A DNA stretch of 64,000 nt from a bacterium (GTDB taxonomy: Bacteria > Patescibacteriota > Minisyncoccia > Phycocordibacterales > UBA9973), in the NCBI GenBank assembly GCA_037130335.1, contig JBAXTD010000001.1, positions 103,419-167,418 of the forward strand, written 5' to 3'. The notes under the pieces are model-generated. The model did not search any database. It saw only the letters and a list, made by a program, of their open reading frames with translations, and was not told the DNA's origin. The position numbers and the translations under genes are program-made. This document shows positions 31,494 through 56,232 of the stretch, piece by piece; within the stretch, counting starts at the first letter, position 1; every line of letters begins with the position of its first letter.

Positions 31494-31522
31494 TTGACAT
31501 TGGCTTCGCGTTCATATACTAT
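31494..31522 (+). promoter_or_regulatory. Candidate rRNA promoter, TTGACA-17-TACTAT.
   Basis: Consensus -35 and a good -10 lie about 175 bp upstream of the mature 16S 5' end. Confidence 0.5.
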
Positions 31523-31692
31523 GGTCTCCGGTAGCTCGTATGAGCGCCATTTTATATCAAAGAGCCGACACAGGGAGCGATACCGATATAAAATTTCCAA
31601 ACATTGAAAAATTAATAGAGTATATAGAGTACTACGTTTTATTTTGTTCCGTTTATATTCCAGTTTTATGAAATTTTAATTTTGTAAATTTT

Positions 31693-33314
<1,622 letters not shown>

Positions 33315-33570
33315 ATTGAATTCTGTTTCATTTTCCTATTTATAGGGCTTTGAAATTTAGTGCGTCGATTTTTTGTGCCTCAATTGAGCACAAAAAGGTT
33401 TAGTAGGCACCTACAACTATTTGGCAGTTTGGAAAGACAAACAGGTAAGAATATTAAACGGAACAAAATATAGCGCATCACTCACATATACAAAAACAAA
33501 AAATAACATCCAAAACATTGGGTGATTTTTTGTATTTCATATAGCAAAAATATGTAGTGCGTGTTACAGT

Positions 33571-36821: not shown

Positions 36822-37232
36822 TTTGTTCCGATTGGATGATCGCGCAAAATTTATTTTGTGAGGAAAGTCCGAACACGCAGCTCTGGGCGGATTTTTTGAA
36901 AAAAACTTTTTTTCAAAAAATCCGCCCAGAATTAAACGTAGTGGGTAATTCCCATCGTCCGCGAGGATAGCGGTGCGAGCAGTGACGCTTTGAGGCGAAA
37001 GCCAAAAAGCACCCCGAATTTTTGGGCTTGCCCAAAAATTCGGGGTGAATTCCTCTGGAAACCTAGGAAGTGAAACGGCAAAATCCGTACGCGCGTGCAA
37101 GATCGTGTTCGGGCGGCCCCGCTTTGCGGGGCCGCCCGAAAGAATCGCTCGAGGATAGAGGTAACTCTATTCCCAGATAAATGATCATCGTCTCGCAAGA
37201 GATACAAAATTCGGCTTATAGGTCGGAACACT
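36822..37232 (+). ncRNA. rnpB: RNase P RNA (bacterial type A).
   Basis: P4 5' strand gaggaaagtccgaacac. 3' region agataaatgatcatcgtctcgcaagagatacaaaattcggcttataggtcgg matches the E. coli AGAUGAAUGACUGUCCACGACAGAACCCGGCUUAUCGGUCAG. P1 pairing is tgttccgattgg / taggtcggaaca. gtgaaacggcaaaatccgtacg is a P10-12 analogue. Confidence 0.85.
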
Positions 37233-37240
37233 GAAATATG

Positions 37241-53235: not shown

Positions 53236-53349
53236 AGAAATTGAAATTCCCAAAGGATAACGGACGAGCCTATATGTAAAATCGTCCACATTTTAGAGCC
53301 CATGAGGAAACTCGTGGTCTCTGAATGAAATTGTACTTTCACAAAATTT

Positions 53350-53395
53350 TTATTGATGACCAGAGAAGGTCACCACCTTTTGTGGTCATCAATAA
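53350..53395. promoter_or_regulatory. Perfect 12-bp inverted repeat (ttattgatgacc N22 ggtcatcaataa), operator-like.
   Basis: Read directly from the sequence. Sits at or over the 5' end of the 53407 gene. Confidence 0.4.
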
Positions 53396-53406
53396 AATCT
53401 CAAATA

Positions 53407-53979
53407 ATGGAAATTATATATAAGAGTAATTCGACTATGGACTTTGCCACTCGCGTAAAGGAAACCATAACATATCTGGACACGGCGATTTTCGAAAAGC
53501 CCGCACGAGTGTCAATAAATACTGACGTGCGTTACGCGAATTTCGGCACTGGTGGATTCATGTCAAAAAGATTGCTATTCAGATTGCTTGGATTATCTGA
53601 TGACTATGTCATCTTTGAAAGAAGCAAGAAAATGGAAATTATAATGAAGATGGACTTCATGGCCACCTGCCTCGCCGCGCACGAAGTTCGGCATCGGTTC
53701 CAACATTACAACAAGAAGACGCTCATCACTTTTGATTTTCTACAGAAGAATAAGATTCTTACTGAACCGGCACTCGCGCACATTCAGAAAGGAAACTATG
53801 ATCTGTACGGAAAAGACAAAGAGATGTATGGGCGCGAGTTTGATGCCTCGGCGATCGAGACGATAATCTCCGGTTGCTCCAAGGCTAAGAATTTCACGAT
53901 GAACGACGTGATTGATTTGATAAAGTGCAATGAAAGCACAATTAGTCAGATTGTCTCTGGAATTGCTAAGCGAAGGTAA
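53407..53979 (+). CDS. Hypothetical protein.
   Basis: ORF from 53353. The internal ATG at 53407 was preferred because the palindrome covers 53350-53395. Confidence 0.4.
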   Translation: MEIIYKSNSTMDFATRVKETITYLDTAIFEKPARVSINTDVRYANFGTGGFMSKRLLFRLLGLSDDYVIFERSKKMEIIMKMDFMATCLAAHEVRHRFQHYNKKTLITFDFLQKNKILTEPALAHIQKGNYDLYGKDKEMYGREFDASAIETIISGCSKAKNFTMNDVIDLIKCNESTISQIVSGIAKRR

Positions 53980-54029
53980 GTTGTTCTCAGTCAAGAAAAT
54001 CCCAAAGCCAACCATTTCGGTTGGCTTTT

Positions 54030-54272
54030 TTACTTTTCTATTTTGGTAAAGCGAAACGCGATAAATGAGAGGTAGAAAAGAACGAGCATTTCGATCCATG
54101 TCATCCAGAGCGGATAGGTCATGCCGCCGAGGCTGATTTCAAATCCGGTCATGATACGGAGCAGGTGAATAAATCCGCCGAAGAAAAAGAGGACTGTGGA
54201 AATATAGAAAAATATTTTCTTGTTCATGGATACAAGAATAGCATATCTAAAAAACGCCATATGTGTGTACAC
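54030..54272 (-). CDS. Small membrane protein (80 aa, 2 TM).
   Basis: Hydrophobic helices. Confidence 0.3.
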   Translation of the reverse strand: MYTHMAFFRYAILVSMNKKIFFYISTVLFFFGGFIHLLRIMTGFEISLGGMTYPLWMTWIEMLVLFYLSFIAFRFTKIEK

Positions 54273-54286
54273 ATTACCACGGTCTA

Positions 54287-55215
54287 CGTATTGTAACCAA
54301 TAGCTTCACACCACCTGCATTGGAGTTAAGTAATTAATCCCTCCATGAACTCGTTTGTTGTTGTAATATTTTAAATACTTTTTAAGTGCACAATTAATTT
54401 CCGAAACATCATTTGAAATTTTGTCTAAACATTCTTCTTGTACTGTTCGATTGAATCTTTCAACATGTGCATTGTCATTCGGTTTTCCGATTCGGGTATA
54501 CCGATGATTTTTCTGTATTTGAGTTACAAACCATTTCCCAAACTCCGGTCCGTGATCCGATTGTAGCATTTTGAATTTGAATGAAGAATGTCGTTGCGCT
54601 TCATTCACAAACCGTATTGTGGTTTGTGAATTCATTTTTGCATATGCTTTTGCATATACCCAACGTGAATATGTATCAATGATGACAAAAACATACAGAC
54701 GTTTCTTCTCCGATATCATCCGATGGATTGTATCAATCTCTAGTAAATCGCCTGATTTCAAGGCGTATGGGCGGTCTACATGCGGATGATATCGTTTCCA
54801 AGGACTTCGTTTCTTCGTTAAATATTTTCGATCGAGTGTTCTTTTTACAGACGAAAGAGAAACTGTTACTCCATCATTTTCTAACTCTTTGTGAACTGCT
54901 TCTGCATATCGATTGTGTTCCAATCTTTTCTTTACGATTTTTCTGACGATATTTTCTGGTAGGGCATTCGGATGTGATTTTGGTTTTGAACTTTTTGTTA
55001 GTATTGGGTGGTCTCCAATGATTCTTGATTTTCGTACCCATTCGGTAATCGCTGTATGATGGAAACCCAGATATCTTCCGACCTTTCTTGCACTCCAACC
55101 TTTATGGACGAGACGCGCTGCGTCTCGTCTGATTCGTGGCATGTTTTTGTTTGATGTGTATGGCATGCTTGATATGGTAATCCAGCGGGTGGTGCCAAGC
55201 TATTGAACCTATACG
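54287..55215 (-). mobile_element. IS481-like insertion sequence (929 bp) with ~38-bp imperfect terminal inverted repeats and a 6-bp target-site duplication GGTCTA.
   Basis: Left end cgtattgtaaccaatagcttcacaccacctgcattgg versus the reverse-complemented right end cgtataggttcaatagcttggcaccacccgctggatt. GGTCTA at 54281-54286 and 55216-55221. Confidence 0.7.
54306..55166 (-). CDS. DDE transposase (HTH plus rve integrase core), IS481/IS3-superfamily type.
   Basis: N-terminal HTH. DDE triad at IDTIH, QSDHGPEF and ERFNRTVQEE. C-terminus is YYNNKRVHGGINYLTPMQV. Confidence 0.8.
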   Translation of the reverse strand: MPYTSNKNMPRIRRDAARLVHKGWSARKVGRYLGFHHTAITEWVRKSRIIGDHPILTKSSKPKSHPNALPENIVRKIVKKRLEHNRYAEAVHKELENDGVTVSLSSVKRTLDRKYLTKKRSPWKRYHPHVDRPYALKSGDLLEIDTIHRMISEKKRLYVFVIIDTYSRWVYAKAYAKMNSQTTIRFVNEAQRHSSFKFKMLQSDHGPEFGKWFVTQIQKNHRYTRIGKPNDNAHVERFNRTVQEECLDKISNDVSEINCALKKYLKYYNNKRVHGGINYLTPMQVV

Positions 55216-55290
55216 GGTCTATTGACATTCTATACATTATATGATAATATACCAGCGATAAATGTTCACTCACAATTAAATATATAACTC

Positions 55291-56037
55291 ATGAAATCAA
55301 TTCTTTTTTGCACCGCTATTTTGATTGTTACTCTTTCTGCTTGTCAGAATGCAAAAGACCCATATGCAGCGACTGTCGATTTTTCAAAACCCGCTGCATC
55401 GAATGCCGATTTTATATTTTCCACCTGCCAGGGTAAGACCCTTCTTGTGGCAGACGCCGCAAGCGCACAAAAAGTTAGTGATAACCTGAAAGCGAAAACC
55501 GGCGGAATATTGTCGGACATGGGAATTGGGAATGCATTTGCGCTTACTTTGCAGGGAAAAACATATTTATGTACTGCAAGGCACGGCGCGGTTGGATTGG
55601 AAAAATATACCAGAACCATCGGGGCGGATATTGCGTTGATAGATTATAACGCCATACCGAACCATGATCTTGGTACAGGATTTCAACTGACCAGCTCGTA
55701 CGAAATGGATACGACCATCCGCACAGGAGACTCGATATTCATTAAGGGATACCTCTTTACCAAAGAGGGAGAGCTGCAAACCGTAACCATCGGCGGCAAA
55801 GGAAAAATAATAGACAAGACTGAGTACGGGAAAAATGTAAGTTTTGGTACTAACGCGCAATACATGCAGCAGCATGAGCTCGTTATCAAGCTTGGTGAGA
55901 ATGTTGAATTGGCAGGTCTTTCTGGCTCTCCGGCATTCAATGCACAAGGGAAGGTGATCGGTGTTTACTCTGGGAGAACCATAGACCAGGACCATGGCAC
56001 TGATACCTACTACATCCGAGTCTCGCTATTTAACTGA
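55291..56037 (+). CDS. Lipoprotein, trypsin-like (S1) serine peptidase fold.
   Basis: Lipobox LSAC. His region CTARHGAV and Ser motif GLSGSPAF. Confidence 0.45.
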   Translation: MKSILFCTAILIVTLSACQNAKDPYAATVDFSKPAASNADFIFSTCQGKTLLVADAASAQKVSDNLKAKTGGILSDMGIGNAFALTLQGKTYLCTARHGAVGLEKYTRTIGADIALIDYNAIPNHDLGTGFQLTSSYEMDTTIRTGDSIFIKGYLFTKEGELQTVTIGGKGKIIDKTEYGKNVSFGTNAQYMQQHELVIKLGENVELAGLSGSPAFNAQGKVIGVYSGRTIDQDHGTDTYYIRVSLFN

Positions 56038-56048
56038 TCTGCATCGGG

Positions 56049-56075
56049 CGACACAATTAAGACCATACTTCTGTA
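56049..56075 (+). terminator. Rho-independent terminator.
   Basis: aagaccatacttctgtatggtctttt. Confidence 0.6.
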
Positions 56076-56232
56076 TGGTCTTTTCTTATAGAGTTTTCTT
56101 AACTGCACGCCGACACCCGAATATTTTTTGTGTGCTAGAATAGGGAACATGACCACCGAAAAACAGACTATTTTAGCTTTCCCATTAGTACAACATGTCA
56201 AGAATTGTCACGGGAAATAAAAACTTTTTTTT

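Follow-up and report, generated by a model that had tools for sequence, protein, structure and literature searches.

A deep IS481-like clade of insertion sequences in Patescibacteria that probably targets the upstream edge of promoter −35 hexamers

An apparently intact transposable element in a small bacterial genome raises the question of what determined the place at which it lies. We addressed this question for a 929-bp insertion sequence (IS) in a 64-kb stretch of contig JBAXTD010000001.1 (assembly GCA_037130335.1, Patescibacteriota; hereafter referred to as the window), which an earlier note had described as a recent insertion of an IS481-like element, with no mention of an adjoining promoter. 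It is, in our judgment, very probable that the clade to which this element belongs inserts in a fixed orientation, with a 6-bp staggered cut, such that the duplicated hexamer adjoins the upstream edge of the −35 box TTGAC(A) of a promoter and the core promoter is left intact. That degree of confidence applies to the explanation as a whole, namely the element, its family, the geometry of targeting and the proposed capture of the target through the −35 hexamer. The features of the window on which the argument depends are as follows.

54287–55215, minus strand: complete IS481-like insertion sequence, 929 bp (L001 is this same locus, with identical sequence)
54306–55166, minus strand: transposase open reading frame (ORF), 286 amino acids, or 278 from the start at 55142 (Met9); two N-terminal three-helix helix-turn-helix (HTH) domains, then an rve DDE core
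54287–54324: right inverted repeat (IRR), the terminal repeat at the end away from the transposase start, reading CGTATTGTAACCAATAGCTTCACACCACC...
55179–55215: left inverted repeat (IRL), the terminal inverted repeat beside the transposase start, reading CGTATAGGTTCAATAGCTTGGCACCACC... in reverse complement
54281–54286: copy of the target-site duplication (TSD), GGTCTA, beside the IRR end
55216–55221: copy of the TSD, GGTCTA, beside IRL, directly adjoining the element
55222–55227, plus strand: −35 hexamer TTGACA, host sequence outside the element, adjoining the TSD
55242–55250, plus strand: putative extended −10 box TG-A-TAATAT, 17 nt after the −35 hexamer
55291–56037, plus strand: gene with its ATG at 55291 for a predicted secreted or lipoprotein trypsin-like protease of 248 amino acids, with homologues that carry Pfam Trypsin and Trypsin_2

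Insertion sites and the adjacent promoter

The two ends of the window element start with CGTATT... and CGTATA..., and pair as inverted repeats over ~37 nt with one indel and several mismatches; as the transposase is encoded on the minus strand, IRL is the high-coordinate end. The bases immediately outside the two GGTCTA copies are unlike each other, so that the repeat is exactly 6 bp long, and this hexamer occurs only five times on the plus strand of the window. Related elements of 73–88% nucleotide identity, including those that encode the transposases P0078 and P0057, align exactly to positions 1–929, and a 930-bp contig spans the sequence from nucleotide 2 of the element to 2 nt beyond its end. 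The flanking hexamers vary among the copies, and they are equal on both sides at 6/6 positions in 34 loci and at 5/6 positions in four more. Because related copies share the element ends while the flanking hexamers vary, GGTCTA is a true 6-bp TSD. The earlier note had considered that the hexamers might be part of the inverted repeats, or that other copies might set the ends differently; the comparison went the other way, and its description of an intact 929-bp element with a single HTH-DDE ORF, imperfect terminal inverted repeats and a 6-bp duplication holds, with the family label being borderline (see below).

To define the target, we aligned 64 non-identical IRL flanks of independent insertions, from elements at 44–100% amino acid identity, together with 76 IRR flanks. 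When the elements were oriented with the transposase on the top strand, almost every left flank read xGTCAA followed by 6 bp and the terminal CGTA... of the element. In the logo read outward from IRL, positions 1–6, which are the duplication, contained no information. Positions 7–12 read T63 T60 G59 A57 C56 A42 of 64, and further outward there followed TG at 27–28, TAtaaT at 30–35 and a purine at 42–43. An exact TTGAC adjoined the duplication in 52/64 flanks, whereas the background frequency is 0.0011 per position (P about 1e-142). The 76 IRR flanks were without information, and none of them had the TTGAC motif nearby. The IRL flank thus appears to be a full sigma-70-type promoter pointing away from the element, with a −35 hexamer, a 17-nt spacer, an extended −10 box TGnTAtaaT and a start purine, where promoter function in these uncultivated organisms is deduced from the consensus. 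At most of the 12 sites that lack an exact TTGAC, a −35-like variant (TTGCAA, TTGAGT, TTTACT, TAGACA, TTAATT and others) keeps the register with a box of the TGnTATAAT type. Of 52 sites, 50 have an outward ORF that begins no more than 300 nt from the −10 box (median, 44 nt); since IRL and the transposase start face the promoter, the transposase gene and the target gene diverge. We found no preference for tRNA genes (a tRNA lies downstream of the targeted promoter in 1/60 loci only), and the classes of downstream genes among mechanically called ORFs (S14, IF-3, a cold-shock protein, a tRNA synthetase and many hypothetical proteins) revealed no usable trend.

The element in the window has the region 3′ of the 53353–53979 gene on one side and the promoter of the 55291 gene on the other, and an independent scan of 53300–56100 ranked the TTGACA-N17-TAATAT upstream of 55291 first among the promoter-like sites. 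Using the orthologue of the flanking 248-residue protein, we obtained an empty site from two Logan contigs of different runs (L101 and L102). They encode an orthologue of 93% identity, the gene adjacent to the site being 89.6% identical in DNA, and are without the element. Their order is the upstream gene, then ...GGTGGGTTTTTTTGTATCTA-TTGACA-ttttatataatatatga-TAATAT-...ATG, with the empty-site junction reading ...TTTTTTTGTATCTA-TTGACA-N17-TAATAT...ATG. Nucleotide homology between the window and these contigs begins at 55218, inside the right-hand TSD copy, and window positions 53350–54286 have no counterpart in L101. An element-free allele of the window site would read ...CATTACCACGGTCTATTGACATTC....

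These contigs bear on the proposal that the element itself brings along the TTGAC(A) box, or even an entire outward promoter, of a mobile or hybrid kind. Many insertion sequences do have outward −35 boxes, and here the motif stands beside nearly every copy. However, the box lies outside the TSD, identical 929-bp copies share only five bases beyond the TSD and differ wholly after them, and L101 and L102 refute the proposal by carrying the same promoter in the same place without any element. For these reasons the −35 box belongs to the target and not to the element, and we regard an element-borne promoter as highly improbable. Equally far-fetched is an absence of any target preference, with random insertion followed by purifying selection that leaves intergenic survivors near promoters. 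The coding density is indeed high (~20% of the flank bases lie outside ORFs of at least 100 amino acids), but selection cannot yield registration to a single base (52/64 insertions exactly 6 bp from TTGAC), a fixed orientation and a featureless opposite flank.

As to the age of the window insertion, which the earlier note had called recent, the intact TSD and ORF, the preserved invariant residues and the element-free relative speak for it, but neither a second identical copy nor a same-strain empty allele was found; the claim is plausible but weakly supported, and L101 and L102 date the insertion loosely. For the lineage of P0078 the case is clearer. One identical 929-bp sequence occurs at six or more different promoters, showing that at least this lineage moved recently.

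The comparison with L101 also revealed a replacement of neighboring sequence. Homology between the window and the element-free relatives ends within ~4 bp of the insertion point, and the upstream segments (positions 53350–54286 of the window and 1790–2640 of L101) are wholly different: the window has a 208-residue ORF, a terminator (54004–54028) and a small ORF, and L101 and L102 have a gene for 250 amino acids and a terminator. Because homology stops there, the boundary of the gene replacement coincides with the −35 edge targeted by the element.

Recognition of the promoter

We then considered whether the hexamer or the promoter is recognized. A −10 match of at least 4/6 at 16–18 nt was found for 75% of the IS-adjacent TTGAC sites, as compared with 16% of all the remaining TTGAC sites of these loci (p=1.5e-16) and 41% of those outside ORFs of at least 100 amino acids (p=4.5e-4). 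The extended TG was present at 58% of the IS-adjacent sites and at 9% of the TTGAC sites outside such ORFs (p=4e-8). Conversely, an exact TTGAC at 16–18-nt spacing was found at 81% of the IS sites and at only 15% of 48 promoter candidates that were crudely defined by an extended −10 box in these genomes (p=8.5e-13). Because the IS-adjacent TTGAC sites are more promoter-like than other TTGAC sites, while promoter candidates of the same genomes rarely have the −35 consensus, both the closeness of the −35 box to consensus and the setting of a genuine promoter matter.

One possible explanation is direct readout, in which one of the two HTH domains of the transposase reads TTGAC on naked DNA and the link with promoters arises from the purging of intragenic insertions, the TTGAC sites that tolerate the element being mostly promoters. 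The excess of exact TTGAC over the promoter candidates, the base-precise registration and the very presence of two HTH domains would agree with this, as would the ...CTATTGA... in both inverted-repeat cores, which has TTGA in common with the target. Direct readout combined with survivorship fits less well, however, with the greater promoter-likeness of the IS-adjacent sites, as other intergenic TTGAC sites would be equally harmless targets and yet they mostly lack the extended TG. In addition, degenerate hexamers (TTGCAA, TTTACT, TAGACA, TTAATT and others) are still in register with strong TGnTATAAT boxes, and the inverted-repeat cores have A or T where the target has its strongly conserved C5. 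We thus consider direct readout a serious candidate but a somewhat doubtful one. Targeting of a sequence that resembles the inverted-repeat core, in the style of IS30, was rejected as weak, with only TTGA being shared and the C5 of the target being absent from the inverted repeats.

The alternative is tethering, in which the transposase complex acts on a −35 box that is occupied by sigma region 4 or the RNA polymerase holoenzyme. As tethering explains both the −35 consensus and the promoter context, we favor it over direct readout, if only tentatively and at a little under an even chance. In its fuller form, which we put forward with more reserve, the integrase-fold (rve) transposase may be recruited by promoter-bound sigma-A or RNA polymerase holoenzyme and, in the manner of a class II activator, dock against the upstream edge of the −35 box. 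It would then be a bacterial counterpart of the tethering of Ty3 by TFIIIB and of retroviral integrases, independent of the Mutator-like TnGBS/ISLre2 elements.

Under the mechanism that we propose, a complex of the transposase with the IS ends would capture the target through the −35 hexamer, most likely while the latter is occupied by sigma-A region 4 of the holoenzyme and less likely through the transposase's own HTH on naked TTGAC. The 6-bp stagger would span the six bases just upstream of the hexamer, at about −41 to −36, and IRL would join the promoter-proximal side; after insertion, everything upstream of −36 of the target promoter is displaced by 935 bp. The orientation would be set by the asymmetry between IRL and IRR, for which the obvious source may be the differences at nucleotides 4–10 (IRL CGTAatggttCAATAGCTTGG and IRR CGTatTCTAatCAATAgCTTgG in the family consensus). 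An asymmetry of the ends has been argued to be the source of orientation for TnGBS/ISLre2 (PMC3942029) and ISAba32 (bioRxiv 10.1101/2022.12.17.520857). The ends also hold elements of a potential junction promoter. Nucleotides −14 to −9 of the IRR end form an outward −35-like hexamer, 8 nt from the tip, that reads TTGATT or TTGGTT in 59/70 loci (TTGGTT in the window), and nucleotides 3–8 of IRL form an inward −10-like hexamer, TAATGG, TAATAT or TATAGG, in 64/73 loci. A junction of IRR, 6 bp and IRL would create a −35/−10 pair with 16-nt spacing that drives the transposase gene. A junction promoter is a hallmark of copy-out-paste-in elements (bioRxiv 10.1101/2022.12.17.520857), and the present elements probably move in that manner, through a circle, as do insertion sequences of the IS3, IS30, IS21 and IS256 type.

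Two loci have remnants of a second end. At L035 (2392–2415), 6 bp (ACGTAC) separate IRR from an IRL-like stretch of 17 nt (CGTAATAGTTCAATTCC), the remainder of the second element being absent; a tandem insertion or a structure like a circle junction would give this order. L053 (2389–2470) has a solo inverted IRL remnant of ~25 nt (TTCCAAGATATTGAACCATAAC) just beyond IRR and its 6-bp flank, at a distance of ~6 bp from a rightward TTGGCA-N17-TAATAT, and this resembles a fossil left by an older insertion at the divergent promoter on the other side.

Several points weigh against the targeting rule and the mechanism built on it. The loci L031 and L084, which have a common left flank, and L070 and L096 depart from the rule. 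All of the data come from metagenome assemblies, in which several contigs are chimeric across copies and have mismatched duplications. The insertions that we observed have survived selection, and the promoter enrichment beyond TTGAC could be partly survivorship; moreover, the ‘intergenic’ and ‘general promoters’ control sets were defined mechanically from ORFs. There is one empty site only, from two contigs of a different strain and with no same-strain empty allele, and exact-pattern scans of JGI metagenome contigs for empty versions of the window site and of site A of the P0078 element returned nothing. Finally, the circular intermediate and the sigma/RNA polymerase contact are inferred from sequence features, with the circle junction itself being unobserved.

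As for the exceptions, L031 (1–27) and L084 (90–117) come from the same metagenome-assembled genome (MAG; PLYL01), and the two family members have 73% and 56% amino acid identity to the query. Their identical left flank, CTGCGCCAATTGACTAGGAGAGCCC, is without a −35 box in the expected register or orientation, and possibly represents an insertion into another repeat.

Comparison with known families and targeting systems

The element holds a single ORF that fills it and is without a programmed frameshift. The product matches the Pfam families rve, rve_3 and rve_2, and HTH families weakly at its N-terminus. Its best NCBIfam family is IS481 (NF033577, transpos_IS481), with 169.7 bits and an E value of 9.5e-50 over model positions 2–283 of 284, as compared with 102.5 bits for the IS3 model; this score is below the curated IS481 cutoff of 224. 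Pfam LZ_Tnp_IS481, the leucine zipper between HTH and catalytic core, was matched weakly (E=0.051; 14.3 bits, cutoff 22.2). Identity to annotated IS481-family transposases on plasmids was 25–27%, and close relatives are named ‘integrase core domain-containing protein’ by NCBI. An exact look-up of the 286-residue product retrieved no record, and that of the 278-residue form retrieved the same locus only. In an alignment of 33 sequences, D145, D204 and E236 were invariant, and from the motif pattern of IS3 and IS481 they are the candidate catalytic triad; all of the residues invariant in the family are intact in the window transposase. The AlphaFold2 model (mean pLDDT 70.9) has three-helix HTH domains at residues 11–47 and 71–113 and an RNase H-like core, and its best Foldseek matches in the PDB were the IS21 transposase IstA and retroviral integrases. 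The structure prediction and the fold search thus revealed a generic architecture of HTH and integrase fold only, and were silent on target recognition. The element looks functional, and we take it for an autonomous DDE insertion sequence of a deep IS481-like clade.

The resemblance to the IS481 family (IS481 and IS1002 of Bordetella pertussis, and the elements annotated by PGAP) lies in the length of ~1 kb, the single unframeshifted ORF, the terminal inverted repeats and the N-terminal HTH followed by an rve-type DDE transposase. IS481 family elements in ISfinder range from 950 to 1300 bp, and 929 bp is marginally short. The 6-bp duplication is shared with IS481 itself, but IS481 and IS1002 duplicate 6 bp at the palindromic target NCTAGN, whereas the present elements are oriented at the upstream edge of a −35 hexamer. 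They also differ in the score under the cutoff of the hidden Markov model, the low identity and the termini. Both termini are 5′-CGT, in the window element as well as in a consensus drawn from 66 distinct elements, instead of the 5′-TGT common to the IS3 and IS481 families (bioRxiv 10.1101/2022.12.17.520857). With a score under the model cutoff and termini other than TGT, membership is borderline, and ‘IS481-like’ is the best available label for this deep clade.

Promoter-directed insertion is known from the TnGBS integrative and conjugative elements, ISLre2 and ISKra4, which insert in one orientation, 15–17 bp upstream of sigma-A −35 regions, by means of Mutator-like transposases; for the TnGBS type, an interaction of the transposase with RNA polymerase was suggested and a circular intermediate proposed (PMC3942029). 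The present elements are similar in their oriented insertion upstream of promoters, which avoids gene disruption. They have an rve/integrase fold, however, instead of a Mutator-like (p-MULT) DDE transposase with the motif associated with targeting, so that the likeness is one of function and not of membership. They also insert at 6 bp, exactly one duplication length, rather than 15–17 bp, and turn IRL, not IRr, toward the promoter; and the hosts of the known elements are Firmicutes and others, not the candidate phyla radiation (CPR). A closer geometric parallel is the ISAba32 subgroup of IS1202, which always lies one duplication length (5–6 bp) from a XerC/XerD site with IRL abutting, has tandem and successive insertions at the same site, and would recognize the site through a protein partner or DNA (bioRxiv 10.1101/2022.12.17.520857). 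Its transposase is distantly related to IS481 and IS3, and IRL is likewise one duplication length from the site. The target there, however, is the XerC/XerD site (dif, pdif) rather than a −35 hexamer with a −10 box, and the elements are larger and have TGT termini. The present family thus combines an ISAba32-type geometry with a TnGBS-type target, in a different transposase lineage and phylum. Ty3, Ty1 and the retroviral integrases, which are tethered by host factors (TFIIIB, LEDGF, BET, B56), are comparable in the integrase fold, the fixed place relative to the transcription machinery and the safe haven upstream of genes; they are, however, eukaryotic and have an RNA intermediate, and tethering is demonstrated for them and inferred here. 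In our literature searches, which did not extend to ISfinder and TnPedia, we found neither promoter targeting by IS481-like elements nor this CPR family described.

Distribution of the clade and genomic setting

The protein family comprises at least 120 cluster representatives at ≥74% identity, many of them on contigs of ~0.9–1.3 kb that are typical of collapsed repeats. A scan of species-representative genomes returned 80 loci at 44–78% amino acid identity, nearly all in MAGs of Patescibacteria (Nomura-, Yanofsky-, Kaiser-, Taylor-, Zambryski-, Vogel- and Azambacteria, and ‘Paceibacterota’). The clade is thus widespread in Patescibacteria (CPR, mainly Paceibacteria), and the remark of the earlier note that IS elements are uncommon in streamlined genomes does not suit this family. 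Four members (L037, L049, L058 and L069) are on contigs binned as Bacteroidetes, Saprospiraceae, Obscuribacterales and Prolixibacteraceae, and are probably mis-binned Patescibacteria. If these bins were correct, the other promoter consensus of such hosts would discriminate between direct readout and sigma tethering.

The repeats have affected the assemblies. Some contigs, such as L002, L006, L009 and L011, are chimeric, with the left flank from one copy and the right flank from another: ‘ctggta’ is at the left of L008 and at the right of L002 and L006, and ‘gtctat’ is at the left of L006 and L007 and at the right of L004. The unmatched flanks of the P0078 element are thus assembly chimeras across an identical multi-copy repeat. 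Overall, the hexamers were unmatched in L002, L006, L008, L009, L011 and L017, and also in L021, L024, L043, L046, L059, L060, L071, L080, L093 and L095; at the GTDB MAG loci, unmatched hexamers could be chimeras or the result of recombination between copies.

Within the window, neither a second copy nor a stray end of the element was found, and the G+C content of the element and of the window is the same (38.4%). The segment on the IRR side contains a further feature.

54030–54272, minus strand: small hydrophobic ORF of 80 amino acids (65 from ATG) beside the IRR end, identical to the NCBI MAG hypothetical protein WCO65_00880 and uncalled as a gene in L001

A search with this 80-residue sequence matched only its own NCBI MAG entry, and the insertion may have severed the ORF from its upstream signals. 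On the minus strand of 55241–55275, in the leader of the protease gene, there are weak leftward promoter-like sequences, TTGTGA-18-TATATT (with TG) and TGAACA-16-TATCAT, that point into IRL toward the transposase gene. They could have served the small ORF before the insertion and now read through into the transposase gene, although such matches are at chance level (10 found, 6.9 expected). Elsewhere in the window, a bacterial 16S rRNA gene (31691–33316) has 1626 nt against a model of 1533 positions and may contain an insertion. A TTGACA-N17-TACTAT lies at 31494, ~200 nt upstream of it, and RNase P RNA is at 36824–37234, 3.5 kb downstream. Because no 23S rRNA was detected in the 64-kb window, the rRNA genes are unlinked.

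The targeting rule probably explains how this family is tolerated in streamlined genomes: where genes are tightly packed, the upstream edge of a −35 box is about the only place that can take ~0.9 kb without breaking a gene or a core promoter. It offers an explanation for the abundance of insertion sequences in some of the most compact bacterial genomes, and for the breaks in their MAG assemblies at contigs of ~930 bp. After TnGBS/ISLre2/ISKra4, the family would be the second example of bacterial DDE transposition that is directed to promoters, and one that evolved independently; its retroviral-integrase fold and tighter geometry make it testable how a transposase finds a promoter. The 60-odd insertion sites also provide a direct, annotation-free sample of Patescibacteria promoters (TTGACA, N17, TGnTAtaaT). 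If tethering is true, the enzyme would be a possible natural tool for scar-tolerant, promoter-proximal insertion, and each copy of this abundant element would mark a strong promoter that is active in an uncultivable organism.

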